In this document: piece by piece, positions 36,701-52,518 of the stretch
Position numbering within the stretch: position 1 is the first letter of the stretch
Layout of the letters: each line of letters begins with the position of its first letter
Virus record (IMG/VR): IMGVR_UViG_3300044638_004964
Location: 41,962 to 105,961 of that record
Strand: one strand, 5' to 3'
From: a virus
Length of the DNA stretch: 64,000 nucleotides
Position numbers and translations under genes: made by a program
Notes under the pieces: model-generated
Databases searched by the model: none
What the model saw: the letters and a program-made list of their open reading frames with translations, nothing else
What the model was told of the DNA's origin: nothing

Positions 36701-39700
36701 TTGCTATCCAGCAAATATCGTGTGTTGAATATAGTGTTTGTACATTTACATCAACGGTGTGTCCAAGGTTAATAAATAATTGATTTAAGTGAGAGTCATT
36801 GTAACCGTCTCGGAAATTTGTTCTATTCGTCCATCCACCAAGTTGTGCTATATTAGATTTTAAATTTTCAGTATTATAAGCTATGTTGGCATAAAAGTTT
36901 ATATTCCTATCACCTTGACCATTATATAGCTGTGATCTAGATTCTGTTACAACGCCAGCGATTAAAATAACTTTTGACGATGAAGCTTCATAGTTTTGTT
37001 GGGCGCAATATGTTGAAAAATCATCCAAGACAAATCTTTCTATAACTGTTCCTTCTCTAGATGTAGCAGATGACTGTAACAAAGAATCTCTATCATCAAA
37101 AAGCTCTGGATCAAAAAATCGCCCAAGACTATTTGTATTTCCATAATTTGTATTTAGATATGTATAATTTCCGCTACTCGATGACCAGATAAACTCAATA
37201 CCACTTCCGATGTTTGTATTATCAAAATTGGTAAATGATGTTGATTCACTTCGTGTTTCATATCTATATCTTGGAAAAGATTCGTATCTTGCTGGAATTG
37301 CTGGATATGTTATAGTATTTACAACAGATTCTGCCGCAACTAATAATGGAATTGGTTCTAAATTTGTAAGATCATATCTTGGTGCTGATATGTCTGATTG
37401 AGAGCAACAATCTGGAGTAAAAGTCTTGAAAACTAATGGCCAATTAACTGGATAAATAATCGTTGGTCCAGAACATCTATCACATTGCTCTAACCATTCC
37501 GCTCTTAAATCGCCATTGTGTATAAGTGGCATTTGACATTCGTGATTAAGAGGATTATCCCACATATCTTTTAAGTCGCATGGCATAGTATATCTATAAT
37601 CTGGCAAATGCATTCTAATATCAGCAACGCCGTAGCCTCTTAAAGTTTGTGGCTGAATATAAGTTGATGCTCCTTGTGATGGTCTAAAGGATGGAATTAC
37701 ATTGAAATCACATCCAGAAACTAAAGCTTCGTATTCATTTCTAGCTGGATGAAGTCTCATTCTAGATTTTAATCCAGATAAAATTTTATTAATTATATTA
37801 TTTGATTTTAAGTAAATTCCATTATTTTCCCATAATGGATCATTGCCAACAAGCACTAGATTCCTATCTCCAAGCTCTAGCCACTTTATAAGTTTATCTA
37901 AAATTTCTTCGCTGAGAGCGTCGATTTCTGGCGTAATAATAAAAGCTAATCCAGCTTCTTTTGGTATATTTAAATCTGAAAATTCTGTTTTTTCGAAATT
38001 ATAATTTTGAAAAATTTGAGACAAGTATCTAAAATGTCCACTATTTTCTGGAGAACTAATGCTTTCTTCTAAGTTTCCGAACTTTGTGAATTCTACAACT
38101 TTATTATGAGGATAATAATTTCTAGACTCAAATAATCTTACTGCTCCAGCATTGGTATTTGATTGCCAACTTGACTTTATAGGTCCATTTAAACCATCGA
38201 TATTTAATGGTTCATTATATCCATCATTCTTATACCACACGTTGCCATCATCCCACTGATTTAAACTATCAGTTGGTGAACCAAAAGCTACGATAGTACC
38301 GTCTTCGTTAACAGCAACACTATATCCAAGTCTTGGTGTTGGAAGGAATCTTTGCGGGATAAATTCCCAAGTTCCAAGTATAGACAAATCTGAGTATCTG
38401 AATGATTTGATATTTATATATTCATTGATATTTAAGTATCTTCTAGCTTCGAATCTTTCTGTTGTATTTAAAGCAACATATAGAGTTTTACCAGCTTCTA
38501 ATAAACCAAGACTTGCAACGTTAGTTATATATTCTAATCTAAGTTTTGCGTATCTACCTATGCCACCGCTTTGAGAACTCTTTAGATTGATCCAAGGGCC
38601 AATGTCATTGTATAACCTTACTTTTTCATCGTTATTATATTCATAAATTTCACAAGCGTTATTGATATAAGGTGATCCAATGGCTATTACTTCTGTATTA
38701 TTACTAATTGCTACAGCGTGTCCGAATCGGTCTGGAATACCATAAGAATCTGCTGGAGAATCTATTTGTTGAATTAAACTCCAAGTTCCACTTTCTTTTT
38801 CAAATATATAAACTTTACCGCCACTAGTTGGCACATAATTAAATTCACCCAAATTAGGATTGAAGTATTGACTTCCAACACCAGATGTGATGTACTTTAC
38901 TTGATCGTTAAGCACAAGTCTTCCAGTATCAAGAGTATGGTTAAGGATATCTTGACTCATTTTTATCCAATTTTCAGCATCATTAAATGTTGGAACAAAT
39001 TCTGTAATCGCTCCAGAAGATTGAGTTCCATAAAAATCAGATACTCCACTTTCAAAACTATATTGCTGATAGTATGAAATAAATTGATCTATTGCGCCAC
39101 CACCATCTCCATTTAAAGACTCTTTACCTAAAGACGCACTATTGTCAACATAGAATCCAACTATGGGTGGTATATTATTATTTATTAAGTCTTCATTATA
39201 TGGGAATGCTTCATTAAATGCTTCTTTAATTCCACTAAGTATTTTCTCTGTTTGTAAGTCACTTCCTTGTCTACGATGAATCCTCTTTTTGGTAATGAAT
39301 GTTGGTTTTGGATTTGGGAATTCTTCTGATGGTGCGCTTTCAGTATCGTCAAGGGTTGGTTCCAGTATTATAAGCTTTACATCAAATGCTGTTGATGGAC
39401 TTGAAAAATATTTAAAGATTACGTCTTTATCTTTTATGCTATTGAGAACATCGACGTATGTTCTAGTGCTTTTTCCTTGGCCTACAATTGGTGTAAATTC
39501 ATCAGTAAAAATCATTAATCCAATTTGAACACTTGATGGATTTACGCTTTCAAACGTGCGCGACCATAGTGAACTTGGTCCACCAACAACGAGAACTTCT
39601 TTATTTGGTTCATGTAAAGAATTATTTCCAGAATAAATTGCTAAATCTAAAGAATGTCCAAACTGTCTACCTTCTTGTCCAACTTTCCAATATCTTTCTG

Positions 39701-42700
39701 TGATTGGCTCAAATCCAGCAACTAGAGTTCTTGTTGCTGTTGTGTAATAATCTCTGATATAACCAGATGGCAAATTAATTTGTTCTTCTAATACCCAAGG
39801 AGATTTATGTTCATTGATATTTAATGACCAAGAATTTCCGCTGGGCGCTGGTAGTCTTCTATAAAGAAATACTGTTCCAGCATCTTCAAGGACATAATTT
39901 ACTGGATCAGAAACACTACTAAGTGGCGAACCAATTGCTATTAGATCATTGTTTATAGCAACTGATTTACCATATTGAGCATTAACTTGTCTTCCACTTG
40001 CTACATATGGTTCATCGCCAATTAATTTAATTCCAGATTGACCAAATCCTTGAATATAGTAATTTATATCTTCTATTTCTGGTGGAACTGATATATAGTT
40101 GTTGCTTCCGGTTTTTCCAGTAATAAAAACTTTATATGGAGCATTTGGTATTAGATCTGTATATTTTCTAATACCATAAAAATGTCCACTATAACCTATT
40201 GGTGAATTAAATCCGCTAGTAGATAGATTGGTATATGTATTTTTTGCTCTAAAAATTCCACCATCAACGCATAAGTCGTTATACCAAGTTTTATCATGAA
40301 TAGTGAAACTGCTTTCTTGACAAGAATTTTCTGTTCCACAATTACCGTAACATATTAAGTCTACGCCGCGAATTTCGTCATTAGCACTTAGTGTTGAATA
40401 TTTATTATCATCAACTGATATGTTCTTTCCAACGTTATCACTATTCCAGCTAATTCCGGCTTGTTGTGCAGTGTCTTGATTGTATGCTAAATAGTTTATT
40501 ACGAATAATGGTAGACTATCTTCTAGTTTAGTAACTGTGTAATCTTGTGCAGCAACGTATAAATTTAAAGAATTTTCTGCGCTAATAAAGACATCTCTTA
40601 GCTCTGTATATAAAGACATTCTACTGTTTGGATAACGGCTATCTCCAGCAGTATTTGAGAATGCGTATAGACCTAATGAGCTAATACTGTAATCAGATAT
40701 TGGTTTATTACTTAAGAATAAAGAGATATTTCCAGAGGTTGTTGGTGATGATAGTGAGTTCTTGGTAAATAGATTGATTCCCTGTTCATCGAACTGATTA
40801 AATCTACCGTCAACGAATAATATTGGACCAAAAGATGGAGAAGCTCCAAAAATATCGAACGATGAGTAGTTGCCATCTGAACTATCAATGGTTCCAATAT
40901 TCAATGTGTAAAGCGGTAGAGTTCCACTTGATAATACCGCTCCAGAACACATTAGATTCATACCGTATCCATTGTTCCAAACGGAAGATGCTGTTGGAAT
41001 GGGCATTCCGCTGGAAAATAAATTCAACCCACCAACTCCACTTGCATTATCCAATCCATACGAATACAGATTTATGTTTGCCAAGGATATAGATTCACCA
41101 CTACACACAAGATTAAATTGAGTATTATTACTAGGACCGGCTGTTACGCTATTAGCTTCAACGAGAGCATTTTCTAGTCTAACATTTGCACTATGGATTT
41201 TAATAGTAGCATCAAATGGAGATCCACTAGGATATACTAAGTCATATTGCAAAAACATATCATTAATATCAGTAGAATAATACTTTGTATCAAATTCTGA
41301 TGTGTTTCGCTCTTGATCAAAATTAGCCCAAGGCTCGCTGGTGTCGATTAAATCGTTAAAATCAAAAATACTTGATAGTTTTTCCCAACAACCAGATGGG
41401 GCTAAATAGTGGGTGTGTCTATTAATTAGACCCCAATTTACTTTGCTTGGTCTATCAACAGGCTCTTGATTTTTAGTATATAAACTTACAATTAACTTGG
41501 GGCCGATATTGCCATCATTCCAAACTACATTGTCTAATGTTTCGTATTCAATTATTGTATCAACAACCATAGCGCGTTCTGCAAAGTCGTATCCTCTTGG
41601 TAAGGTTTTGCATATTCTTGGTGGCAAAGACAAGAAATTTGGATTTGCATCTGGAATATCAGATAGATTAAATCTTAGGAAATCATTTTCTATTTGAGTG
41701 TGATAGCATACTCCAGATGTTGGAACGCTTGATGGAAGAATAGAATCGGTTGTCAGGTTATATGCCGATCCATCGTGTTTTAATCGGTGAATTATATAGT
41801 CAGCACCAACTCTTTTTGTGAATGAGTTGTATGCTGGTGAAAATGCGCATATCTTAAAAGCTCCAAGATTCCATTCTGATGTATCATCATCTACATATTG
41901 CCATAATTTAAATTCATCTTTATCATAACTCTCGGATGGATTCCAAAATTTATGCTTAATGGTTTCAAAGAAATGCTCGACTTGCATTTGTTTGTATAGT
42001 AAATCGACTTGTCCAGCATTATTATCTATTAAGTTGGTTCCGTCATCGTTATATGTAGAGATGCCGATATCAGTGATAAATAAATTACTACCAATGCCAC
42101 TGCCATCACTGTAGCCAAACTTTAAATGACTATTACCAGAGGTCAATATGAATGATGATGATTGATCTCTCAGGTGATGGAATGTATTTGTTGAACTTTT
42201 TTCGTTATCTGTATAAAGCTTTAGCTTATTAGATAGGTTGTCATTGTATGTTAAAATAACAGATATTGGGTATTGATATTCGTAATAATATAAATTATCT
42301 TGAACTTTTTTAATCGATCCATTTGAAGCTCTAGCATAACCTGTTAAATGGCCATTTTCATATCCCAAACTAAACTCTAGATTTTGACCACTATCATATT
42401 TAGCAAATATTATACCACTATTCCATAGATTATATCCAACGCCACTCATATTGATATCTGGACTAAATCTTGCAAAAATAGAGAATCCACTAACAGTATC
42501 GATGTTTCCAAAATCAATATAGCCAGTATTACCAGAAACTCTTACGGCATTGTCATACGAATCTGATATTAATCCATATAAAGAATCATTCTCGTAGCCA
42601 TCTATAGAAGTCCAGTCTATAGTTTTATATGGTGTATTTTCTGAAAATAGCGATGTTGAATTGAATCTTAGTCCAATGTTTTTGATTTTATTATACGATC

Positions 42701-45053
42701 CAATATACTGACCACTAATTGGTGCAATGTGTGGAATACTATCAGAAACTATAAAACCATTACTATCGTTATTAAATGAGAAATAACCATTTAAAAATGG
42801 AGTATTGAGTTGAGGATTATAGAATGAGAAGTCAAACTGATAAGGGTCGAATGGGCCAGAAACTACATTTCCCTCTACCCCTCTCCATCTTCTAGAATAG
42901 TTAGTCTTTAATGTTGATGGTGTCTTATAACTATGTGGGATATCTTCAATTAATGAAACTGGTGCGTATTCTGGACCAGTATTTATAAGATCGTCGTTGC
43001 TTTGTCGTGTAGATGGATAAATTTTTACTGTGCGAGAGTCTAATTCTCTGCTACCTTGACCAACGGTATGAAGCATTAATCCATTGGAGGGCTTATAATG
43101 AATAACAAGCTCTATCTTTGATATCGAAGCGCCGCTTGGTATGGGATAAATATCTAGATACAGATTCTCAAACGAGGAACTCATTGAGTAATCTTTTGAC
43201 TTTCCTATTGCTATACGATCTTCGTATATTTGAAGCGGTATAGTATAATCAACAAACGATGTACTATTAATAACGGGCGATGTGGCTAACTTATAGTGAT
43301 CGCCACCATCATTATTAGTTAAAGATGATGTGTAGAACTCGTCTTTGTCAGAAAGGGCTTCTGATGAAATTCCTAATTCATTAGTTGGATTAAACCCAGA
43401 AGATGATGGTAGTGTTCCAGTTCCAGAGACATTTTGTAAAAATCCACCAACCGCTGGAGTTATATTCAATAATTTATCATCGCTATAGCCAACAACGTCA
43501 AGAACATAATCTCTACTCCCAGAAGCTTTTCTTGCGCGGACTTTTAGCTCTATAGAGTCTATAGTGAAAAAATTATCAGTGGCCGCAACATTGCTAAGTG
43601 CCGCAGAATCAAAACTATTATCTTTACCAAAACTAAAAGCTCCATTTTGATATTCTATTACTCTTGTTGGAGCTTTGTGGCTAAACTTTAGATTCAATTT
43701 GCCAGAATCTGTTATTTCGTTTATGTAGTTTAAAGTTATATAGTCGCTACTAGAATCGTTAATAAGAATATTATTTAATACATTTGATCCACTGGCGCTT
43801 GTATTATATGTTGAAGAATTACTAGACTTCCAAGTACTATTAACTTGCGGATATATATCCGTATCGAAGTCATTTGTAAGTACTTGAACTGGGAATATTG
43901 ATCGTGAAATTCTTTGACCAATTGGGGCGACTTCTGAATAAAAATTAAGATAGCTATCTCTGAGTATTCCAACTCCACCGCTGTTACAAATCTCTATAGA
44001 AGAAATTCTTAAATTATTCGTTGGGATGGATGGATAATTTTCTGGTGAGGATAGGTTTATTCCAGAAGTAGAACAGTCATTTTCGTATCCAAAATTAAAG
44101 CCAGTATTGAATGGGTCATCTAAACAAGTTGAATTTACATCTATATTAAGAGTGTATCCGCTACCCTCTTCCATGAATGGATAATCTTTATCCCATGTGT
44201 GAAGTAATAGATTGTTTACATCTGGCTCTGAAATATAGGTTGAGTAATTTATATTCTCTACTGCATAATTAGAATCACCCCTAAGAATAATATCTTTATA
44301 TTTTATGATTAGATTACCAGACGGATCTTCTAGTCTAATATTTGACAGGGTGTATTTTGGGGGAACGTGGGATATATAGTTCTTAGTTGGGGCCGATGCT
44401 CTTATAAATAAGAAGCTTTCTTTAGCAACTTGAGTAGGTGTTGTTACTTCAAATTTATATCTAAAATCACCATCGGTAAATATAGATGATGGTTGAATAT
44501 ATGAGTCGATTTCGTCAGATATTCTGGTGCTATTTTTGAAATTTTGAGTATAGTTACCAGTAAAAATACCCTCATCGATACTAGAATAAAGATTGCCTGT
44601 CCCCAAATTTTTATTAACAAAATAATTACCATCAAGGACAGTTACTATATCTTTAATGGGGTATAGTTTTTCTGTGGCTTGAAAATTATCTATACTATTT
44701 ATTTTGGTTATAGATCCAGCAAATTTATCTGTATAAGAATTATACAGTCGGCTTGATGAAGATAATCTTCCAACCAAATTGCCAGAGACTGTTAGTGTGC
44801 CGCGAATATCACTATTAGACGATTGCGGTAATTCCTGTAAACCAAAAGACATATTACTTTTGGCTTGAAAATCACCATCTACCGTTAGAGTTGCTGTTAA
44901 ACCAATCCTTTTACTAAGATTAGGTTTTAATTTTCCTATAGCAGATATTCTAGCAGTGGGGGATAAAGTAGCTAATGTTTTAGCTTTAAAAGAACTTGAT
45001 GATTTTAATCTACTAGTTCGTTTTATCTGACAAGATATACAATCTAATGACAT
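33732..45053 (-). CDS. Giant adhesin-like tail protein (LamG-like domain, seven FG-GAP-type repeats)
   Basis: 3773 aa; LamG-like segment near 42050-42550; repeats YGKSVAI, FGHSLDL, FGHAVAI, LGYSVAV, FGYSIDL, FGYDVAI, YGDSVAI, each followed by a GSP/GAP/GGP motif. Confidence 0.7.
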   Translation of the reverse strand: MSLDCISCQIKRTSRLKSSSSFKAKTLATLSPTARISAIGKLKPNLSKRIGLTATLTVDGDFQAKSNMSFGLQELPQSSNSDIRGTLTVSGNLVGRLSSSSRLYNSYTDKFAGSITKINSIDNFQATEKLYPIKDIVTVLDGNYFVNKNLGTGNLYSSIDEGIFTGNYTQNFKNSTRISDEIDSYIQPSSIFTDGDFRYKFEVTTPTQVAKESFLFIRASAPTKNYISHVPPKYTLSNIRLEDPSGNLIIKYKDIILRGDSNYAVENINYSTYISEPDVNNLLLHTWDKDYPFMEEGSGYTLNIDVNSTCLDDPFNTGFNFGYENDCSTSGINLSSPENYPSIPTNNLRISSIEICNSGGVGILRDSYLNFYSEVAPIGQRISRSIFPVQVLTNDFDTDIYPQVNSTWKSSNSSTYNTSASGSNVLNNILINDSSSDYITLNYINEITDSGKLNLKFSHKAPTRVIEYQNGAFSFGKDNSFDSAALSNVAATDNFFTIDSIELKVRARKASGSRDYVLDVVGYSDDKLLNITPAVGGFLQNVSGTGTLPSSSGFNPTNELGISSEALSDKDEFYTSSLTNNDGGDHYKLATSPVINSTSFVDYTIPLQIYEDRIAIGKSKDYSMSSSFENLYLDIYPIPSGASISKIELVIHYKPSNGLMLHTVGQGSRELDSRTVKIYPSTRQSNDDLINTGPEYAPVSLIEDIPHSYKTPSTLKTNYSRRWRGVEGNVVSGPFDPYQFDFSFYNPQLNTPFLNGYFSFNNDSNGFIVSDSIPHIAPISGQYIGSYNKIKNIGLRFNSTSLFSENTPYKTIDWTSIDGYENDSLYGLISDSYDNAVRVSGNTGYIDFGNIDTVSGFSIFARFSPDINMSGVGYNLWNSGIIFAKYDSGQNLEFSLGYENGHLTGYARASNGSIKKVQDNLYYYEYQYPISVILTYNDNLSNKLKLYTDNEKSSTNTFHHLRDQSSSFILTSGNSHLKFGYSDGSGIGSNLFITDIGISTYNDDGTNLIDNNAGQVDLLYKQMQVEHFFETIKHKFWNPSESYDKDEFKLWQYVDDDTSEWNLGAFKICAFSPAYNSFTKRVGADYIIHRLKHDGSAYNLTTDSILPSSVPTSGVCYHTQIENDFLRFNLSDIPDANPNFLSLPPRICKTLPRGYDFAERAMVVDTIIEYETLDNVVWNDGNIGPKLIVSLYTKNQEPVDRPSKVNWGLINRHTHYLAPSGCWEKLSSIFDFNDLIDTSEPWANFDQERNTSEFDTKYYSTDINDMFLQYDLVYPSGSPFDATIKIHSANVRLENALVEANSVTAGPSNNTQFNLVCSGESISLANINLYSYGLDNASGVGGLNLFSSGMPIPTASSVWNNGYGMNLMCSGAVLSSGTLPLYTLNIGTIDSSDGNYSSFDIFGASPSFGPILFVDGRFNQFDEQGINLFTKNSLSSPTTSGNISLFLSNKPISDYSISSLGLYAFSNTAGDSRYPNSRMSLYTELRDVFISAENSLNLYVAAQDYTVTKLEDSLPLFVINYLAYNQDTAQQAGISWNSDNVGKNISVDDNKYSTLSANDEIRGVDLICYGNCGTENSCQESSFTIHDKTWYNDLCVDGGIFRAKNTYTNLSTSGFNSPIGYSGHFYGIRKYTDLIPNAPYKVFITGKTGSNNYISVPPEIEDINYYIQGFGQSGIKLIGDEPYVASGRQVNAQYGKSVAINNDLIAIGSPLSSVSDPVNYVLEDAGTVFLYRRLPAPSGNSWSLNINEHKSPWVLEEQINLPSGYIRDYYTTATRTLVAGFEPITERYWKVGQEGRQFGHSLDLAIYSGNNSLHEPNKEVLVVGGPSSLWSRTFESVNPSSVQIGLMIFTDEFTPIVGQGKSTRTYVDVLNSIKDKDVIFKYFSSPSTAFDVKLIILEPTLDDTESAPSEEFPNPKPTFITKKRIHRRQGSDLQTEKILSGIKEAFNEAFPYNEDLINNNIPPIVGFYVDNSASLGKESLNGDGGGAIDQFISYYQQYSFESGVSDFYGTQSSGAITEFVPTFNDAENWIKMSQDILNHTLDTGRLVLNDQVKYITSGVGSQYFNPNLGEFNYVPTSGGKVYIFEKESGTWSLIQQIDSPADSYGIPDRFGHAVAISNNTEVIAIGSPYINNACEIYEYNNDEKVRLYNDIGPWINLKSSQSGGIGRYAKLRLEYITNVASLGLLEAGKTLYVALNTTERFEARRYLNINEYINIKSFRYSDLSILGTWEFIPQRFLPTPRLGYSVAVNEDGTIVAFGSPTDSLNQWDDGNVWYKNDGYNEPLNIDGLNGPIKSSWQSNTNAGAVRLFESRNYYPHNKVVEFTKFGNLEESISSPENSGHFRYLSQIFQNYNFEKTEFSDLNIPKEAGLAFIITPEIDALSEEILDKLIKWLELGDRNLVLVGNDPLWENNGIYLKSNNIINKILSGLKSRMRLHPARNEYEALVSGCDFNVIPSFRPSQGASTYIQPQTLRGYGVADIRMHLPDYRYTMPCDLKDMWDNPLNHECQMPLIHNGDLRAEWLEQCDRCSGPTIIYPVNWPLVFKTFTPDCCSQSDISAPRYDLTNLEPIPLLVAAESVVNTITYPAIPARYESFPRYRYETRSESTSFTNFDNTNIGSGIEFIWSSSSGNYTYLNTNYGNTNSLGRFFDPELFDDRDSLLQSSATSREGTVIERFVLDDFSTYCAQQNYEASSSKVILIAGVVTESRSQLYNGQGDRNINFYANIAYNTENLKSNIAQLGGWTNRTNFRDGYNDSHLNQLFINLGHTVDVNVQTLYSTHDICWIANPDTLPNNEEINSIKNWLSIGNKKLVITYDGNNLSSVQSKARTASQLCSLLGISITPHFLDEDNIYPVAQTRFQTLAFNESSDLSGNGKTKITSYQLISQIRFVPIKTQDINNRVCYADDSIKATRRKLIGYWQMKSGVAKVSFPVIAGSGYKIFVDTVSETSSETEPLNVFISNANTEAGLPYPTMPRSSPIVDLDINSDQFVTLENAPVGVFRRLSPATIGFVNTYSINVQIPSGMSALTMYFDGNNQRLLNQNKTYAPKSTRLLAVSGASIPVIETVLTQVTKIPILDGFDEIKTREAIPEETITFSAFRPISTDNTKYCSSDRCIENKMNDKLIADGPVVAAQESISSFLAGNNRSRITVLADSSFVQGPCMIDENDLISQNTISFLTSMYPTSPRNSNFGRQFNTMTKIIAPERGSPQKYYALYNSSGINYLFNNGSTSQSLLSNFDDKESKYDPRYVLRTRQPYNNAMDFEEIQKIIKQKIAEFANLQSAYGATAKFSGVIEGVLYEDASFAGGMPELMKKTGYDYLNFDRFSVGYPGDLFGYSIDLYNNKLVVGSPFAAFSDESINPWNHYVSGGLSSGIQLGYNGGAGSVYIFEKTYNGSGLLGAKTPWEFTEKLRPESINIGSGNSGNSIVGDRFGYDVAIDNDTMVIGAPGHDYENHIIVNSGSFGVKFFNKEFDNYYLSFYDLGSKSNRDAFGTSGNISLNNGAIFTFENRIIDWPTRKQKWTLVQKSVAEGYNSRERINSYYGDSVAIDMANRTDSDYSIVVGSPFHQYAISGNHSSTQPLNGAGASYALDVMLREQPASGPSKDSFLNARVFGETLIDGNPTINISFKNNSDNNKSYLASGVIYSNNQGEIFLEASGQDPVTKGFIQHRPYIFAIDGQYMYGTPISQGMILTNFGKAVDIDNNMNMYTNVDDNAFVYNNLGMYTSSITGFASGIPSGLYLFTDCPDPTVISNSGLTLFASGIGTDTDTLNLRIRGK

Positions 45054-45057
45054 AATT

Positions 45058-48000
45058 TTATCCTAATACTGATCCGTTATTTTGTATTCCGTTTTCCGTT
45101 GGGTAAGAATTCTTTAGTTTCTCAGAAACTTTGCCCATTACTCGGCTCTCTAAATTGTCCGCAAAAGCATTCAACATATTTCCACCCATAACATTAACAT
45201 CGACTTTAGTATCGGCTATTTGGTGAGATATTGTGGTTGGTAATGACTTGATACTTTCTGCTACTCCGTTAACATAACCCATCACTCTGGTTAGTGCTTG
45301 TGTTAATTTTTCAAAAGATTCCGTAGATCCACTTCCGCTACTAGATGATACACCACCTCCAGCATAATATTGAACTTTACCACCTCTAGCAAACCCCATG
45401 ACGGCAGAACTATTAGTCATGCCACCGCCCGTCCCGTTCATTTGTTGTAATATTTGTAGATTATTGCCACGATTAACAGCTTCTCTTCTGACTACAAATT
45501 CTCCGGGAGTTAACATTGCGGGAACAGTATCGGTTCCTCTTGGGATAAACATTCCACGATTAGCGTATATTAAGCCACCATTTGCTTTTCCTAAAGCCGC
45601 AACGGCAGCTTGTCCTCTTTCTTGTACTTTATTATAAATAACTTGAGCATCCCTGACATTGATTGTGGCCGATTCTAATTGCATATTAGCCATCTCTGCC
45701 CCAAGCTGTCCAGTTTCTCCAAGAGCGGTGCCATAATCTCTCAATCTAGACTTAGAAGCTTCCTCTTCTGCCGTTGTTCCGCTAGCAACTTGTGCTAATC
45801 TAGGATCAGTGACTCCTCTAGCACTTAAAGCAGAACCAAAAGCTTGTTGAGTTAAACCTCCCTGTCCAGCTAATTGAGTGCCGTATAAAGACTGAACACC
45901 AGCTTCTTGCTGTCTTCTAATATCTTGTGCTGCTAAACCTAAAGCTTCTGGACCAAAAGCTCCCATCAAAGATTTATTCCCAGTAGCTATAGCGGCAGTT
46001 GCCCCAACAGTAGCTTGTGTTTGCATAAACTTGTCAATATCACCAGAAACAAGAGCATCTATAGAATCTTTTTCTAATTTATTTTTTTCACCAATTAATT
46101 TGAGATTTTCTTCTTCAAGCTTAACAAGTTCTCTTATAGTATTAACTTGGTCTTTTTGAGCTTTTTGCAAGTCTTGTTGCATTTCATTCATTCTTGCGCC
46201 ATTAGCTCCTTCGAATCCGTTCTGCTCTGTTCTTGATCCTTCAATTGCTGTAAATTTATCTAGAATTTCTTTATTTCGTCCACGAATGTCTGCTAAACTT
46301 CCAGTGTTCATATTTGATAGACCTAAGTTATTAACATTGGCTCTATCTAATACGTTCTTTCTTCTTTCTTCATTTGTGACTACTTTGCCGCCATATTTAC
46401 TTTGTAGTTCTCGCCCCTCTAATGTTAAGGATAATGCTTCTTTTTGAGCCTCTAAAGCATTTCTTTCTGCTTCTATTCTTTTCTTTGTTAGGTCAATTAA
46501 TACCTGTTCGGCTTTTTGTCTATCTTGAGCAATTTTTTCAATTTCTTCAAACGCTTTTTTTTGTGATTCTGATAACTTATCACCAATAACACTCTTATCT
46601 CCACTTAGTAATTTTTCAACGTCTTTTTGATCTAACTCTAGACCTCTAATAACAGATTTTAGATTATCTTTGATTGCTCCTTCTGGTAATCCATTAGATA
46701 ACTCTTCAGCAAATCTATTTTTTAATTCATCTGGGCTTAGAATTTTACCAGTAACTTTCATTTCGTCTCTTATTTCATCAAAAGCGGCACCGTAGTTTTG
46801 CTGGGCTTGGATAAAGGCTGCGGTATTGCCTTTAAATTTAGCAACATCGCCGGGAGAAACTCCAAGGCTAGAAAGATTTTTACCGACATTTTCCATAGAC
46901 TGTTTGATTTCATCTGGGTCCATAGATGCTGCCGCGCTACCCATTGCTTCTTGCAAAAAGGCAACATCATTAACGAACGAAGAGCCACCAACTTCTAAAC
47001 CAGCAGCAAACTTAGTCATACTCGCTGACTGTGCGCTACTTATAGAAGTTGCTGAACGTAAACCCAAACTCATTGCGTCCAAAGCTGCTCTTGCTGTTTC
47101 AATTTCTTTTGATAAATTTTTAAAACTATTTTCTAACTCTTGAGACATTTCATACGCTGCTTCTGACTGTTGTTGCAGCAGGTTAGCGGTGTCATTATCG
47201 CCTTTATTTCTAGCTTCTATTGATTGATTAGCTAAAGATAAGCCTTTTGCTCTTAAGGATGTTGCTGATTCGCCACCGCTAGCTTGAATTTCTGCATCAA
47301 TTGTTGCTTGATCTTTATTAAGCAATATTCCCGATCTCATAGCCTCATTAGTTAGAGGTCTTCGCATCTCAAACGCTTTTCTTTGAGCATCCATTGAAGA
47401 TTTGTTTAATCCTTCGTTTTCTTTATCAATTCTAGCATTTCGTGTAGATGCGCTTTCAACGTATCCTAATGTTGCGAAACTTGCTACATTTCTACCAAAA
47501 CCTTCAAGACCTCCTTGATTTTTATTTGCATTATTTGTTTGTATCGCTTTTTGATTAGCTTGTTCTAAATTATTTGCTTCCGTTGTAACATTTCTAATTT
47601 TTGACAAGGCATCTGCTGCTGATATAGTTCCTCTATTGAAATCTTCCATCGCTTTTGCGGCATCTTTTTCGCCTTGTTCAAAAGCTTTTTGAGTTTTGGT
47701 TGCTTGAGCTTGAGCTTCTGATAAAGCTACTACACTGTCTTTAGTATTTCCACCAAATAATTCCGATATAGCTTCTGATAGACCCGGATCTTGTGAAGCA
47801 ATTAAAGTTCCAAGACCAGCACCTATAGCCGCTCCGATTGGGCCACCAAGCATAAATCCAAGTACGGCACCACCGCCACCTAAAGCCATTCTGCCAGTAT
47901 TTCCAGCTTCTAAGCTGTATTGATCAGATGCAGCTTTTCCAGCAGCCTCAACGTCGCCACTTTCAATAGCTTTTTTCTTTCGAACTTCTGCATCACTGAA

Positions 48001-51000
48001 CGCTGTTACCGCAGCATTAAATAAAGATATTGCAGTTGTGGCAACGGCTAAAGGTCCAGCAAGTCTACCAAACTGAAATGCAACTTTACCTATCGGGCCA
48101 CTCAAAGACCTAAAAATATCGCCAGTTCTTCCTTTAGGTATAAATTGTTCTACGTCTACTCCGGGGGAGCTTCTTAAACGTCCGCTTTTGTTACGTCTTA
48201 AAGCTAGTCCTCTAAGTATATCTCTGTCGGAACCAGATCCGGGATCTCTATAATTTAATAATCCCGGAACCCTTTGCCCAATACCAGTAGAACCGCCACG
48301 CCTAAAAGCATCTATGCTATCACGAAGATCTGAGCTTCTAGCTCTTCTATCAAACGGTCTAGTAACTTTGCTTTGAAAATCACCTCCGCTCTTCCCAGAT
48401 AAAAATTTACCAACACTTTGCTTTGTAAGAGATACTCCAAATCCTTCTAAGGCGAATACAACTCCGCCAATTGTGGTAATCATACTTAGTACAGAATTAC
48501 CAAACTTTTGCATAGCTGAACTATTATCATCAATTGGTGGCAACATAGCTTGTAGTGCGCCAGACGCTACGCTTATACCAAGTCCAAAATTATTAGTAGC
48601 TTGTGTGGCTCTTTGAGTTGCTTGAGCTTGTGCGGCAGTGTTTACAGTTGCTCCGGGTCCACTTGGGGCGGTAACGGGTTGAACACCCGTTCCGGTAGAT
48701 CCACCAGCAAATTTTTGAACTATTCCACCGTTAGCATATTTACCAACCTTATTCATGCGATTAAGATTGCCATAACCAATACGCTGTGCGGACGATCTAT
48801 TAACAACAAACTCGCCGGGAGTTAATAGTGCGGGAACAGTATCTGTGCCAACCCCGCCACCGGTTGCGAATCTAGCCACGCGATCTACTCTAGAGCCTTT
48901 GTTTCTAATAGCATCTATTGCTGGCTGTTTACTGCCGCCCTGAGTAAATATCATATTCTGAACTGGAATACCAAACTGCGAACTGAGATATTCAGCCGCG
49001 CCCTTAACTCTTTTTGACTTGCTTATAATGCTTACTTTGCGAGCATCTATTTGTCCATTTTTAATTGCAATTTGTAATTCTCTACCAAACTGTGTAATTG
49101 GGGCAGTTTGTAGATCTTGAAGACGCTTTGCCTCATCTCTAAAATATGTATTTAGCGATGCGTCTTTTGCTCCCGGAGTTGGGGCTTTGGCGTAAGCTGT
49201 ATCGCCAATTGTTCTTTTGAGTGTTCTGTCAACATCAACCGCGCCACCGCCAGCCTTGATTAAAGCTTGTATTGCCGCGCTTGGCCTTGGAAGAATTGAG
49301 CCGGATGCTTGTAGTATATCATCAACAAGCGGAGCGTTTTCTATACCTTTAGCTCTACCACCCATAGCAAATTTTTGAATTATTCCACCAGCAGCTTTTT
49401 TAGTAGCTAAATCATTTTTAACAAGATATCTATCAACTTGAGCTAGAAATTTGCTGTTATTTTTACCGCCACTACCAATAGTTCTAGTTACGTCTGTTGG
49501 TATATTGGAAGCTATTCCAAATTTTGATGATACCGCACCAAGGCCAGAAGGAAAATCTAATGGTGAATTTATGCCGTCTTTTTCAAAGGGCGCACCAACA
49601 AGTGCTAATGAAGATTCTAGATAAGCACCAGCAGCATTATAAAATCCAGCTTTTTTGATTACATCATTAATAAATCCTTGTTCTAGTTTTGGTCTTGCTC
49701 CTACGCTTGTTGCTAATTTTGTGCCAATATTTTTAATGGTATCGATGAACCCACTTTTCATGACACCTTCATATTGTTTGGATTCTTTTTTATTTAATCT
49801 AGCGCCTTGGATAGAGACTTGTGTTTTTGTTTTGGGTGTAATGCCAAGCGTGGGACCGTAAGCATTTCCAAATAACCCAACTAATCCAAACTTGGGAACA
49901 TTAGCAAGTTTTTCTTGATTTTCAAATCCTTTTTTTCTTTTTGCTAATTCATTAGCAACTCTAGATGCGCCAGCCCTTGATAAAGCCGTATTTCCACTGA
50001 GCGATGATAATTGATCATCTGATAAAGATGCAAGATTGGATCTAGCTGGGGTTCCAGATCGTGGAATAATAGCTTTGCCACCACGATCAAATCTTTGTAC
50101 TTCTCCACCCCTGTTCATGCCAGCTAAGTTACTAGCACCTAACTTTTGAACACTACTTTTTCGTATAACAAACTCGCCGGGGCTTAACATAGCTGGAACG
50201 GTATCTCTATTACCAACGCCGGGAACCAAACCGCCAGTGGCAAAATGATGAACTTTTCCACCTTTATTAAAAGTGCGACCAGATTGTAATCCAGCGGCAG
50301 TTGCTCCAACGAATGTTCCAATTCCTCTAATTGCCCTAAAAGCAGCTACTGATGCAAGCAACGGAAGTAATGGCTTAATTGAGTCTGCAACTTTAATTAA
50401 AGCACTTGCAAGCGTAAGTGCTGTATTAGCCATGATCTGAAATGTCGAAGTTTCAGTAACGCTACGAATTAATGCTAGAAATTCTTCTCTTACTTTTGCT
50501 ATACGAACAGCTAAAGCTGCTTGTGCCGAAGCAGCATCTTGAGATAATGAATTATTAGCTTTTGTAGCAACATTCAAAGCGGCTTCTGCTGTAGAAAATT
50601 GCTGTAATAGTGGAAGAACTTTACCAATTTGTCGGAATCCACCAAGCTCTTCTGCGACTTTGATAAATGTAATATCTCTTTCGCCAAGACCAGCTAAACC
50701 TTCACTGAGTCTTTTAACAGCTTCGAATGGTCCAACGAATTTACCTTCTAGGTCTACTAGATTAACACCGAACTGTTTTAAAAATTCAATAGTTTCTGGT
50801 CGTTGAATACGTGTGAAAATTGTTCTTAAGCCCGTACCAATACTTTCAGCACTTTCGCGGGTTGTTGCTCTGACTGATGTAAATAGGGCGAGTAGTTCAT
50901 TAAGATCACCGCCAGAAGATTTAAACACACCGCCCGTTCTACGAATAACGTCGATCAAGTCGCTAGCTTCAACGGCGAATGCGCCAGCAACAGCATTAAT

Positions 51001-51615
51001 TGATCCTAACTGGCTCTCTAAAGCTCCAACGCCCTGTCGAAACTGAGCAAGAATAGCAATAGCACCTTCGGCAGTTTGCGTTATGCTATCAAAGTTGGGG
51101 GCTAGTGCTGCTTGTGCTAATGAATTAAGAGCAACTTTGGTATCGGAAGCACTTAGGCCGGCCTGTGTTAAAACCGTAGTAACTTCTAGCAATGACTGTG
51201 ATGATACACCAAACCCTCTTGCTAAATTAGTAATTTCATCAGTTAAATCTCTTAAGCCGCCCACGCTTTTGCCGGTGACTTGGGCAACCTTAACTAACTG
51301 ACGCTCAAAATCAATAGAAGTTTGTATAGCATCGCTAAGTGTGCTAGTAAACAAACCTACTGCTCTAGTAGCTATAGAGAAAGCGGCAAAACGGCGAATA
51401 GACACAGCAAAAGCTCGACCCATCCTATCAGCAGCCGAAGTTGCTTGATTGGTGGATTGAGTTATTTGCTGTATCTGTTGCTGTGCCCGTGCTGATCCTT
51501 GAACCTGTACATTAACGTTAATACCATTAAGTTGGCTCTGGATTTGGCTAACAATTTGCGATACATTGTTAGGGGCTTGTAATTGTAATTGAGCGGTTAA
51601 TACGAAACGTGCCAT
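45058..51615 (-). CDS. Tail tape measure protein with inserted domains
   Basis: TP901-type core (FERQLVKVAQVTG..ESIGTGLRTIFTR), long Ala/Gln/Glu helical segments, three DTVPAxLxPGEFV motifs. Confidence 0.9.
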   Translation of the reverse strand: MARFVLTAQLQLQAPNNVSQIVSQIQSQLNGINVNVQVQGSARAQQQIQQITQSTNQATSAADRMGRAFAVSIRRFAAFSIATRAVGLFTSTLSDAIQTSIDFERQLVKVAQVTGKSVGGLRDLTDEITNLARGFGVSSQSLLEVTTVLTQAGLSASDTKVALNSLAQAALAPNFDSITQTAEGAIAILAQFRQGVGALESQLGSINAVAGAFAVEASDLIDVIRRTGGVFKSSGGDLNELLALFTSVRATTRESAESIGTGLRTIFTRIQRPETIEFLKQFGVNLVDLEGKFVGPFEAVKRLSEGLAGLGERDITFIKVAEELGGFRQIGKVLPLLQQFSTAEAALNVATKANNSLSQDAASAQAALAVRIAKVREEFLALIRSVTETSTFQIMANTALTLASALIKVADSIKPLLPLLASVAAFRAIRGIGTFVGATAAGLQSGRTFNKGGKVHHFATGGLVPGVGNRDTVPAMLSPGEFVIRKSSVQKLGASNLAGMNRGGEVQRFDRGGKAIIPRSGTPARSNLASLSDDQLSSLSGNTALSRAGASRVANELAKRKKGFENQEKLANVPKFGLVGLFGNAYGPTLGITPKTKTQVSIQGARLNKKESKQYEGVMKSGFIDTIKNIGTKLATSVGARPKLEQGFINDVIKKAGFYNAAGAYLESSLALVGAPFEKDGINSPLDFPSGLGAVSSKFGIASNIPTDVTRTIGSGGKNNSKFLAQVDRYLVKNDLATKKAAGGIIQKFAMGGRAKGIENAPLVDDILQASGSILPRPSAAIQALIKAGGGAVDVDRTLKRTIGDTAYAKAPTPGAKDASLNTYFRDEAKRLQDLQTAPITQFGRELQIAIKNGQIDARKVSIISKSKRVKGAAEYLSSQFGIPVQNMIFTQGGSKQPAIDAIRNKGSRVDRVARFATGGGVGTDTVPALLTPGEFVVNRSSAQRIGYGNLNRMNKVGKYANGGIVQKFAGGSTGTGVQPVTAPSGPGATVNTAAQAQATQRATQATNNFGLGISVASGALQAMLPPIDDNSSAMQKFGNSVLSMITTIGGVVFALEGFGVSLTKQSVGKFLSGKSGGDFQSKVTRPFDRRARSSDLRDSIDAFRRGGSTGIGQRVPGLLNYRDPGSGSDRDILRGLALRRNKSGRLRSSPGVDVEQFIPKGRTGDIFRSLSGPIGKVAFQFGRLAGPLAVATTAISLFNAAVTAFSDAEVRKKKAIESGDVEAAGKAASDQYSLEAGNTGRMALGGGGAVLGFMLGGPIGAAIGAGLGTLIASQDPGLSEAISELFGGNTKDSVVALSEAQAQATKTQKAFEQGEKDAAKAMEDFNRGTISAADALSKIRNVTTEANNLEQANQKAIQTNNANKNQGGLEGFGRNVASFATLGYVESASTRNARIDKENEGLNKSSMDAQRKAFEMRRPLTNEAMRSGILLNKDQATIDAEIQASGGESATSLRAKGLSLANQSIEARNKGDNDTANLLQQQSEAAYEMSQELENSFKNLSKEIETARAALDAMSLGLRSATSISSAQSASMTKFAAGLEVGGSSFVNDVAFLQEAMGSAAASMDPDEIKQSMENVGKNLSSLGVSPGDVAKFKGNTAAFIQAQQNYGAAFDEIRDEMKVTGKILSPDELKNRFAEELSNGLPEGAIKDNLKSVIRGLELDQKDVEKLLSGDKSVIGDKLSESQKKAFEEIEKIAQDRQKAEQVLIDLTKKRIEAERNALEAQKEALSLTLEGRELQSKYGGKVVTNEERRKNVLDRANVNNLGLSNMNTGSLADIRGRNKEILDKFTAIEGSRTEQNGFEGANGARMNEMQQDLQKAQKDQVNTIRELVKLEEENLKLIGEKNKLEKDSIDALVSGDIDKFMQTQATVGATAAIATGNKSLMGAFGPEALGLAAQDIRRQQEAGVQSLYGTQLAGQGGLTQQAFGSALSARGVTDPRLAQVASGTTAEEEASKSRLRDYGTALGETGQLGAEMANMQLESATINVRDAQVIYNKVQERGQAAVAALGKANGGLIYANRGMFIPRGTDTVPAMLTPGEFVVRREAVNRGNNLQILQQMNGTGGGMTNSSAVMGFARGGKVQYYAGGGVSSSSGSGSTESFEKLTQALTRVMGYVNGVAESIKSLPTTISHQIADTKVDVNVMGGNMLNAFADNLESRVMGKVSEKLKNSYPTENGIQNNGSVLG

Positions 51616-51651
51616 AGTTTCCTAACTTTGGTTAAGGCCGCTCACTATCCA

Positions 51652-52518
51652 TTAACTATCCGAAGATTTGGATTTCTTTACTTTTACTACCGCCTTGGCT
51701 TCTTCTATAGCTTGGTCGTTATCATCCAAATATGTTATACTTGGAATGTAATTACCAGAATCATCTAGAATATTGCCATCTTTATCTGTTCTTTGACCAT
51801 CACTATTGATATAGTAACCCTGCTTGTCAATTCTGCGTCCTTCTAAATCTACTGTTTCGCCCTTTTCATTGACTAAACTAAGATTTTCGTCTACATAATT
51901 GAACATTTTAAGGAACTTATTTTCGGGCAATTTGGACTCAAAATCCTTATCTACCGAATAAAGCATACCGGCTAATGTTGTAGCGGCGGCATACCCAATT
52001 TCATCGTCAGATCGTCTTTGATAGTCTTCTAAATCATTATACACCTTATTGCCATTTTCATAATATGCGCAATTAGCAACTAAAAAGTCGAATTTGCTAT
52101 TATCAGAAATAGATTCCGCTGTATTTTGCTCTAGAGATAATCTTTCGGATATAAGATCGCGCAACTCATTCCTCTTTTTGCGCATTTCTATAGCAATTCT
52201 TTTACCTTCTGATGCTCTGAGTTTACCATTCTTGCCACCGACGTAAAGCTGTTTTTCTAGACTAAAAATAGTATCAGTTATTGACTTTTGCTTTTCGTCC
52301 TTATCTTTATCCCATACGCCTTGGGCGTTCATGAACTTTTCAAGTTCTTTCTTAGTCATAATTCCTTCACGAACACAGTCTGTCCAAACTTTCGCACCAA
52401 TTCTTTGTGATGCTGACATTAGTGTGTTGCTTGGCTTTTTAACGTATAGTTTGATTGTTTCCTCTTTACCATTCTTAGTGATTGTAACATCAACAATTTT
52501 TTCTTTATCCTGTGACAT
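51652..52518 (-). CDS. Putative tail assembly chaperone (paralog of 52905-53930)
   Basis: Immediately upstream of the tape measure gene; GGAGG SD; C-terminal D-x-x-G repeats. Confidence 0.55.
   Translation of the reverse strand: MSQDKEKIVDVTITKNGKEETIKLYVKKPSNTLMSASQRIGAKVWTDCVREGIMTKKELEKFMNAQGVWDKDKDEKQKSITDTIFSLEKQLYVGGKNGKLRASEGKRIAIEMRKKRNELRDLISERLSLEQNTAESISDNSKFDFLVANCAYYENGNKVYNDLEDYQRRSDDEIGYAAATTLAGMLYSVDKDFESKLPENKFLKMFNYVDENLSLVNEKGETVDLEGRRIDKQGYYINSDGQRTDKDGNILDDSGNYIPSITYLDDNDQAIEEAKAVVKVKKSKSSDS

Follow-up and report, generated by a model that had tools for sequence, protein, structure and literature searches.

Tape measure gene and its glycine motifs

The window analysed here is a 64,000-nucleotide stretch of viral DNA (IMG/VR record IMGVR_UViG_3300044638_004964, positions 41,962 to 105,961; the record comprises 105,961 bases and is estimated to be ~67% complete), and the gene in question lies on its minus strand and encodes a protein of 2,185 amino acids (aa), P0001 (Table 1). 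P0001 matches two models of the tape measure protein (TMP) family well above their cut-offs, PF10145 with 80.4 bits (cut-off 33.2) over aa 129-313 and TIGR01760 with 91.3 bits (cut-off 28.8) over aa 89-425, as well as six PHROGs of tail-length TMPs. Judged by these matches, P0001 is a TP901-family (PF10145 PhageMin_Tail / TIGR01760) TMP of an uncultured long-tailed phage, which bears out the identity proposed in an earlier examination of the DNA letters made without database searches (the sequence-only reading). That reading had also picked out seven glycine motifs and three copies of DTVPAxLxPGEFV in the gene, and argued that the motifs are processing or recombination junctions which make this protein a modular delivery vehicle for early effectors. 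Each of the seven motifs lies where it had been placed, all inside one open reading frame (ORF), and DTVPAxLxPGEFV is indeed present at aa 471, 925, and 2029, each time preceded by a glycine motif.

Table 1. Features of the tape measure gene, with positions in P0001 and in the window
Feature	P0001 (aa)	Window	Strand	Basis or remark
Tape measure protein ORF P0001	2,185 aa	45058..51615	-	ORF list and translation
Conserved N-terminal TP901-type core	1-445	50281..51615	-	aligned in 97-99% of 120 homologs, mean identity 61-94% per 40-aa block
Module 1 (M1): GGKVHHFATGG - DTVPAMLSPGEFV...LxxMN - GGEVQRFDRGG	449-513	50077..50271	-	position of D471 fixed in nearly all homologs
Motif FNKGGKVHHFATGG	449-462	50230-50271	-	
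Motif MNRGGEVQRFDRGG	500-513	50077-50118	-	
Cassette A (type 0), near-universal in the family, fast-evolving	514-742	49390..50076	-	largest segment cluster
Motif AAGGIIQKFAMGG	741-753	49357-49395	-	
Lone joint GGIIQKFAMGG, no DTVPA core behind it	743-753	49357..49389	-	
Cassette B (type 1), optional HAD-like alpha/beta domain; AVDVDRT at aa 792-798	754-912	48880..49356	-	AF2, Foldseek and VIA
Module 2 (M2): RFATGG - DTVPALLTPGEFV...LNRMN - KYANGGIVQKFAGG	913-972	48700..48879	-	BLASTP match to lambda gpH
Motif RFATGG	915-920	48856-48873	-	
Motif YANGGIVQKFAGG	960-972	48700-48738	-	
Gly/Pro-rich region with three hydrophobic segments	973-1300	47716..48699	-	composition and hydropathy scan
Putative helical ruler	1301-2006	45598..47715	-	low Pro+Gly, high helix propensity; aligned in 91-100% of homologs
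Module 3 (M3): ANGGLIYANRGMFIPRGT - DTVPAMLTPGEFV...LQQMN - FARGGKVQYYAGGG	2007-2088	45352..45597	-	canonical C-terminal copy
Motif ANGGLIYANRG	2011-2021	45553-45585	-	
Motif FARGGKVQYYAGG	2075-2087	45355-45393	-	
C-terminal tail, with stop codon	2089-2185	45058..45351	-	position only

Glycine motifs as edges of a repeated module

When aligned, the glycine motifs are not independent of each other; they are the two edges (predicted edge strands) of one module of 60-80 aa with the order edge, core, edge. The module follows the pattern GGx[VI]xx[FY]AxGG, 5-10 residues, DTVPAxLxPGEFV(V/I), ~8 residues, (G)xxxLxxxN, 1-12 residues, and [FY]AxGG(x)V, and P0001 carries three full modules (M1, M2, and M3) together with one lone edge, the lone joint. 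We compared P0001 with its 120 best-scoring homologs, on which all cassette statistics below are based and which are mutually related, so that the events counted among them are not fully independent. In these proteins M1 has a fixed place, M2 is found at aa 750-1150, and some 150 aa separate M3 from the C-terminus, and the 147 lone joints found in homologs give the logo (K/R)K-x-x-GG-x-I-Q-K-F-A-x-GG. The only PHROG which matches the module is phrog_35029 (function unknown), with three matches in P0001, while no Pfam or NCBIfam model matched any of the three modules. A Pfam search with the isolated modules and the whole inter-module region returned nothing at E <= 10 except a sub-threshold match to EAD6.

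It may be argued that the motifs are chance or low-complexity glycine runs without meaning, since P0001 is 10.9% glycine and contains 33 GG pairs, and since one of its six matches to GGx[VI]xx[FY]xxG, at aa 1248-1258, is a glycine-zipper hydrophobic segment and no true copy. However, the six matches to this pattern compare with 0.017 in residue shuffles, and the six matches to [FY]AxGG with a mean of 0.17 (maximum 3 in 2,000 shuffles), which amounts to a 35- to 350-fold enrichment. The motif is also specific to the TMP in the window, its density per 1,000 aa being 2.75 in this ORF and 0.11 in the other 47 ORFs, and both its position and its sequence are conserved in hundreds of homologs. The shuffle enrichment, this conservation, and the lone-joint logo combined together refute an origin as chance runs, to which we give next to no credence. 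At the DNA level the motifs are repeated within the TMP gene over 54 nt at 81% and 69% identity and over 37 nt at 84%, with exact runs of merely ~11-14 nt.

Cassette variation between M1 and M2

The 120 homologs were cut at [FY]AxGG and the pieces were clustered, which gave 23 segment types. Type 0, the type of cassette A, forms the largest cluster (110 segments of 225-368 aa); in 38 of 109 proteins it is followed by no further cassette, the other options being type 1 (~160 aa, 34 segments), type 2 (~110 aa, 22 segments), and many rarer types, and additional cassettes also occur ahead of type 0. Some close pairs of proteins differ by one whole cassette. The flanks of P0054 and P0067 are 99% and 97% identical, and the two proteins are one indel of a 172-aa cassette apart; P0101 and P0111 differ by one cassette of 112 aa, and P0022 and P0023 by one of 229 aa, with flanks 95-99% identical. 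In all three pairs the alignment gap falls inside the duplicated QKF/AxGG (the slash marks the gap). P0002, the closest relative of P0001, shares 94% identity with it over aa 1-513 and 83% over aa 913-2185, lacks cassette B, and has a cassette A which could not be aligned with that of P0001. When indels were collected systematically, a strict first pass gave 4 events and a relaxed pass 43 of at least 60 aa; both ends lie within 8 aa of a joint in 27 of the 43 and at least one end in 39, while random placement would put 1.25 with both ends at joints (maximum 6). Cassette content also shows almost no correlation with a tree of the N-terminal domain, on which type-1 cassettes required 21 changes against 27 for shuffled labels. 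By these observations, whole cassettes between M1 and M2 have been gained, lost, and replaced at the edge motif of the module.

Between M1 and M2 the segments thus vary as whole units, as the sequence-only reading had anticipated, with 27 of 43 indels ending on joints on both sides. Its term "recombination junction" stands insofar as whole-cassette indels end at the joint; the short and modest DNA repeat (37 nt at 84%, exact runs of ~11-14 nt) would fit either exchange at the joint DNA or selection for a tolerated linker.

Some of the cassettes in relatives carry a recognisable enzyme domain. PF03496 (ADP-ribosyltransferase exoenzyme) was found above its cut-off of 23.4 bits in three relatives, P0094 (28.5 bits, aa 1067-1276), P0089 (29.8 bits), and P0210 (26.8 bits), and in P0094 as well as in a sub-threshold match of P0066 (17.6 bits) the domain starts one residue past the joint. 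A Pfam search did not find PF03496 in P0001.

The family extends well beyond these homologs. At E <= 0.001 more than 1,600 homologs were found; more than 1,325 matching metagenome proteins have lengths of 1,201-3,824 aa, and at least 339 further matches are giant relatives of 3,825-5,000 aa, which share the N-terminal 520 aa of P0001 at 44-64% identity. Those numbered P0124-P0243 carry 1-7 DTVPA..GEFV modules (median 4) at spacings of roughly 200-2,000 aa, many of about 1,000 aa. The window TMP, with three modules and two cassettes, is a small example. One giant relative, P0161, is named as the TMP of a Sphingobacteriia metagenome-assembled genome, which hints at a Bacteroidota host. Another IMG/VR relative (L002:16265-18496, +) has three modules of the C-terminal type (..EPKGTDTVPAMLTPGEFVVN..) near the end of its TMP, about 200 and about 470 aa apart, where P0001 has one.

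Cassettes and intervening segments of P0001

Cassette B was found in 34 segmented homologs and is the better modelled of the two cassettes. AlphaFold2 (AF2) gave pLDDT 75-90 for its core (aa 779-914), with strands and helices alternating, and the best PDB matches in Foldseek are all HAD phosphatases (AphA, E 1.2e-2, prob 0.99; PSPH, E about 1e-2). VIA gave Z 6.3-6.7 for class C acid phosphatases, Z 6.0 for AphA, and Z 5.5 for CheY receivers, with just three strands modelled, and several of the viral models matching cassette B are named as phosphatase, nucleotidase, or PNKP phosphatase domain. The sequence AVDVDRT, which fits HAD motif I (DxDx[TV]), stands behind the first predicted strand, as HAD motif I should, with D794, D796, and T798 unchanged throughout 33 sequences; motif II may be represented by a Ser at aa 862 (SIISKS) and motif III by a Lys at aa 893 (GGSKQP). 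HAD-like is as far as the label can go. Among 1.84 billion representatives, sequence relatives of cassette B form 51 clusters; the proteins which contain them are 1,217-4,355 aa long, with the domain at positions 6-1227, except for five shorter proteins (582-867 aa) which we took to be fragments. By this distribution cassette B belongs specifically to TMPs and was not captured recently. The idea of effector cargo thus gains from the enzyme-like cassettes, HAD-like here and PF03496 in relatives; cassette B itself is confined to TMP-sized proteins, so that to call it an early effector is to infer.

Cassette A is of a different kind. It had been regarded as swappable along with the other segments and proved instead to be near-universal in the family, with an identity of 25-31% across homologs where that of the N-terminus is ~80%. 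Its residues G663, E667, and D687 (GxxFEGxL...FDFPxGLG) are invariant across 40 homologs, which suggests a functional site. The AF2 model of M1 with cassette A was too poor for a structure search (pLDDT 48, helices at about pLDDT 70), and an ESM Atlas search with cassette A returned unnamed clusters alone (0.82-0.85), which are leads at best. We considered a PD-(D/E)xK nuclease (E667...D687...D709-x-x) and dropped it, as the Lys position is not kept in P0001 and there is no fold support.

The largest inter-motif segment (aa 973-2006) consists of hydrophobic segments and a putative ruler instead of cargo. The hydrophobic segments lie at aa 1038-1064, 1185-1207, and 1250-1273, the last being a glycine zipper, and aa 1301-2006 looks by composition and helix propensity like a helical ruler, not cargo. 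The description of the segments as globular and not helical fits aa 451-1300, which are rich in Pro and Gly with low helix propensity and include the alpha/beta cassette B; it does not fit cassette A, which is partly helical, or the ruler-like aa 1301-2006. The zipper, GGGGAVLGFMLGGPIGAAIGAGLGTLIA (window 47797-47868, -), is a clean indel against the 83%-identical P0002, and some relatives score for Pfam Gly-zipper families.

From these segments one may also argue that modules and joints are uncut connectors, for instance staples which keep the three TMP chains in register or docking points for tube, chaperone, or hub, and that the variable segments, instead of being effectors, adjust the length of the tail or the passage through the envelope. 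The family-wide and partly helical cassette A would agree with this, as would the restriction of cassette B to TMPs, the hydrophobic segments behind M2, which recall the channel-forming TMPs of lambda and T5, and the relatives of 3,825-5,000 aa, whose 1-7 modules spread along the chain resemble ruler punctuation. Against it stand the invariant residues of catalytic type in cassette B (DxDxT, S, K), the ADP-ribosyltransferase domains above the Pfam cut-off in relatives, and the fact that cassettes are dispensable between near-identical TMPs, which is hard to reconcile with an essential structural role. We regard this structural reading as a whole as rather unlikely.

Counterparts of the module in lambda, T5, and Douge

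The module is also present in TMPs of cultured phages. By BLASTP, M2 matched lambda gpH 747-784 (E 5e-6, 45% identity), and a profile built from 11 modules matched lambda gpH 731-787 at E 0.0034 and mycobacteriophage Douge gp16 twice, at E 3.7e-7; when all 177,635 distinct PDB sequences were searched with the profile, two chains matched and both are TMPs. With tblastn the module was found in 580 phage records and, among the matches listed, mostly under a TMP annotation. Judged by these matches the module is homologous to lambda gpH 731-787. The module is not PF09718, which maps to lambda gpH 627-701, outside it. In gpH the model TIGR01541 (tape_meas_lam_C) spans aa 472-813, module included; neither TIGR01541 nor PF09718 matched P0001 or its three modules at E <= 1. 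In the literature searched we found no description of a repeated junction module, of a link between it and the lambda and T5 cut sites, or of cassette exchange at its edges.

Lambda gpH matures to gpH* and gpHC, the latter of about 14 kDa (PMC12617516), and from the mass we place the cut at ~aa 719-737, at or just before FATGG733. The single module copy of gpH (aa 731-787, FHFATGG...PAGIVHRGEFVFTKEATSRIGVGNLYRLMRGYATGGYV) lies in the glycine-rich region which loses ~14 kDa, with a hydrophobic segment nearby, and the C-terminal piece stays in the tail tip (PMC12617516); both the cut site and its catalyst are called unknown in that 2025 paper. Unlike P0001, gpH contains the module just once, towards the C-terminus, with no cassettes embedded; its family is TMP_2/TIGR01541, to which P0001 has no match. 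In T5, pb2 is cut after R1127, as determined by mass spectrometry, into pb2* and pb2C, the latter of 92 aa (PMC10038345). The cut falls in the sequence NSFVPR/AEGGMMYPGVSYQMGEHGTEVV, and FVPR/AEGG...GEHGTEVV lines up by eye, without a scored match, with GMFIPR/GTDTVPAMLTPGEFVV of M3. According to one proposal, the released C-terminal piece of pb2 is the first to be expelled and works in the periplasm (PMC10038345), which makes it a precedent for cargo carried by a TMP; pb2 differs from P0001 in having one diverged copy and in that its cargo is the C-terminal piece, not internal cassettes. The Douge TMP gp16 (PDB 8ZDO, chain 8zdo_S, 1,699 aa; PMC13033339) has two modules, at aa 963-1028 and 1411-1463, in a cultured phage; in the TMP passages of that paper the modules are not discussed, and aa 1658-1699 alone are resolved.

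If P0001 is cut at all, the T5 precedent would place the cuts N-terminal to the DTVPA cores, with pieces of 49.3, 47.7, 116.4, and 16.4 kDa as the products. The last of these, the C-terminal piece formed by a cut before the core of M3, would have 157 aa and is with its 16.4 kDa comparable to lambda gpHC. By position, the C-terminal tail of P0001 may be the counterpart of gpHC and of T5 pb2C, which dock in the baseplate hub.

A further explanation, along the lines of the sequence-only reading, is that P0001 is a polyprotein, cut by a protease after the GG of each [FY]AxGG joint, the freed cassettes being early effectors. The joint is conserved beyond the needs of a linker (GGxIQKFAxGG in 147 lone joints), lambda and T5 are known to cut their TMPs close to this module, proteases directed at GG are common in other systems, and ADP-ribosyltransferase cassettes would have to reach cytoplasmic targets. 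However, T5, the only precedent mapped to the residue, is cut after an Arg just before the core and not after GG, so that the lambda and T5 precedents point to the N-terminal side of the module rather than to each GG; lambda gives no mapped site, and we found no protease candidate in the record or, by Pfam, in P0001. Cutting at each GG in P0001 would be without precedent in TMPs, and we consider release of effectors in this manner unlikely.

The T5 papers put a "metallopeptidase motif with muralytic activity" directly behind the pb2 cut, at the site of the module-core counterpart in T5. The module could accordingly be a muralytic zinc-peptidase-like element, its repeats multiplying wall-degrading activity. 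But the copies in P0001 have neither a His nor another metal ligand in the matching places (DTVPAMLTPGEFVV), no peptidase family matched, and lambda virions have no muralytic enzyme and gpH no known enzymatic activity (PMC12617516), which makes this explanation very improbable. As to T5 itself, the stretch PGVSYQMGEHGTEVVTPMVPMKA (L006:17122-18021, -), annotated as a zinc-carboxypeptidase or "metallopeptidase" motif and lying directly after the R1127 cut, appears to be the module-core counterpart. It presumably matches the PROSITE pattern.

A proposed modular tape measure with cassettes exchanged at joints

We favour, with moderate confidence, the reading that P0001 is a TP901-family TMP in which three copies of the lambda-type module and a lone edge serve as joints, and that the cassettes between M1 and M2 are exchanged at these joints. 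M1 and M2 would bracket a variable region made of cassettes, each closing with one [FY]AxGG joint, and the repeated joint would act as a seam, either as the site of exchange, in its short repeated coding sequence, or as the one place which tolerates exchange in frame. In P0001 the variable region would comprise cassette A and cassette B, the latter an optional HAD-like putative phosphatase, where relatives carry other cassettes including ADP-ribosyltransferases. As the TMP leaves the tail ahead of the DNA, the cassettes would reach the cell envelope or the cytoplasm along with it, a step which we infer. The lumen of the tail tube is ~4 nm wide, and folded domains of 160-400 aa in three copies would not fit in it side by side; the cassettes must therefore be extended or staggered in the tube and refold later. 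Refolding after ejection is what the T5 authors propose for pb2C.

Several points weigh against this reading. Any cutting, ejection, or enzyme activity of P0001 and its close relatives is putative. The joints at the ends of indels could reflect selection for tolerated linkers and not recombination at the joint DNA, and the tree of the N-terminal domain may have poor resolution, given the high similarity of the sequences behind it. The HAD assignment has middling scores (Z 6-6.7 against Z 5.5 for CheY receivers); no HAD family of Pfam or NCBIfam matches cassette B, and a canonical acidic motif IV was not found after the Ser and Lys, PLVDD lying upstream at aa 762. Instead of an acquired effector, cassette B may be a part of the TMP whose role is structural or directed at the envelope. 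AF2 leaves the modules unfolded (pLDDT 30-45), and in the descriptions of the lambda and Douge cryo-EM models just the extreme C-terminal helices are resolved, the modules not being among them. Finally, JAB (Prok-JAB, lambda gpK-like) and NlpC/P60 domains were not found in the 106-kb record, which is ~67% complete.

The view of the TMP as a modular carrier is supported. The overall interpretation offered by the sequence-only reading is supported in part: in its favour are the identity as a TMP, segments which vary as units, enzyme-like cassettes, and a module beside the lambda and T5 cuts, and against it are the ruler-like segment and the near-universal cassette A.

One may go further and propose that the module serves long-tailed phages in general as a self-contained processing signal, the same which lies behind the cuts of lambda gpH and T5 pb2, and that TMPs with several modules are polyproteins cut at every module or joint, in tail maturation or after ejection, with the cassettes (phosphatase-like, ADP-ribosyltransferase, and others) entering the host ahead of the DNA. 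We consider this unlikely as a whole; if true, the tail lumen would be a second route of effector delivery, distinct from that of head-packaged proteins. For 50 years the place and manner of the lambda gpH cut have been an open question, and a module at that very place gives a concrete sequence element to mutate and to trace by mass spectrometry. The same module recurs at the lambda cut region, at the mapped T5 site, twice in Douge, and three to seven times in giant TMPs of uncultured phages, of which there are hundreds. Should the cassettes be delivered, tape measures would be an unrecognised vehicle for host-directed enzymes and the joints would be natural seams for engineering cargo into phage tails. 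Moreover, since variation by whole-domain cassettes explains the differences in TMP length, the length of a TMP in this clade should not be taken as a direct measure of its tail.

Comparison with other delivery systems

TMPs with wall-degrading domains, cutting of the lambda and T5 TMPs, polyvalent virion proteins, and TMP-related modular effectors of contractile injection systems (CIS) are already known. T-even tail-fibre adhesins gp38 and gp37 reportedly have Gly-rich motifs which flank hypervariable segments and may serve as recombination sites. Unlike P0001, these are receptor-binding proteins which vary in short loops and not in whole domains, and their motif is unrelated. Polyvalent proteins (Iyer et al. 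2017, PMC5512222) resemble P0001 in that several conflict-type domains, including ADP-ribosyltransferases, stand in one polypeptide which enters the cell together with the DNA, and processing into units is proposed for them; they differ in being delivered from the head or by conjugation and in being typically processed by a zincin-like MPTase domain. P0001 has one enzyme-like domain and no peptidase or MPTase domain that we could find, where a polyvalent protein would have two or more conflict-type effector domains plus a processing peptidase (MPTase). TMPs are never mentioned in that paper (0 occurrences of "tape"; PMC5512222). Closer in the nature of the carrier are the Sle1-type effectors of actinobacterial CIS (PMC13277306), with a TMP-related carrier and exchangeable domains, loaded in a tail-like tube and ejected. 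They belong to a CIS and not to a phage, their variable domain is C-terminal, and the abstract of that paper mentions no repeated glycine joint.

Genomic surroundings

The TMP gene sits in a block of late genes, with ORFs upstream on the same strand which match tail and tail-fibre PHROGs. PHROGs did not recognise the tube and chaperone genes or name the ORFs directly upstream of the TMP. Four nt past the TMP stop begins an ORF of 3,773 aa (window 33732-45053, -). Its sole Pfam match, of 60 bits, is to FG-GAP repeats around aa 3425-3450, and we presume that it encodes a giant protein of the distal tail, the hub, or a fibre. Downstream of it, an ORF of 582 aa (window 31984-33732, -) contains one FATGG at aa 175, which may have arisen by chance; outside the TMP, [FY]AxGG has just two matches in the 18,847 aa of the window.

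Among the isolated phages of INPHARED, only the TMP core is shared with P0001, at ~25% identity. A phmmer search of PDB sequences with the whole TMP gave a match to RecR as its sole result, which we discarded as spurious. The G+C content is 0.41 at window 48001-52000, that is in the 5' two-thirds of the TMP gene, against 0.29-0.40 elsewhere (mostly about 0.32-0.37), and this rise probably reflects the Gly/Ala-rich composition of the protein.

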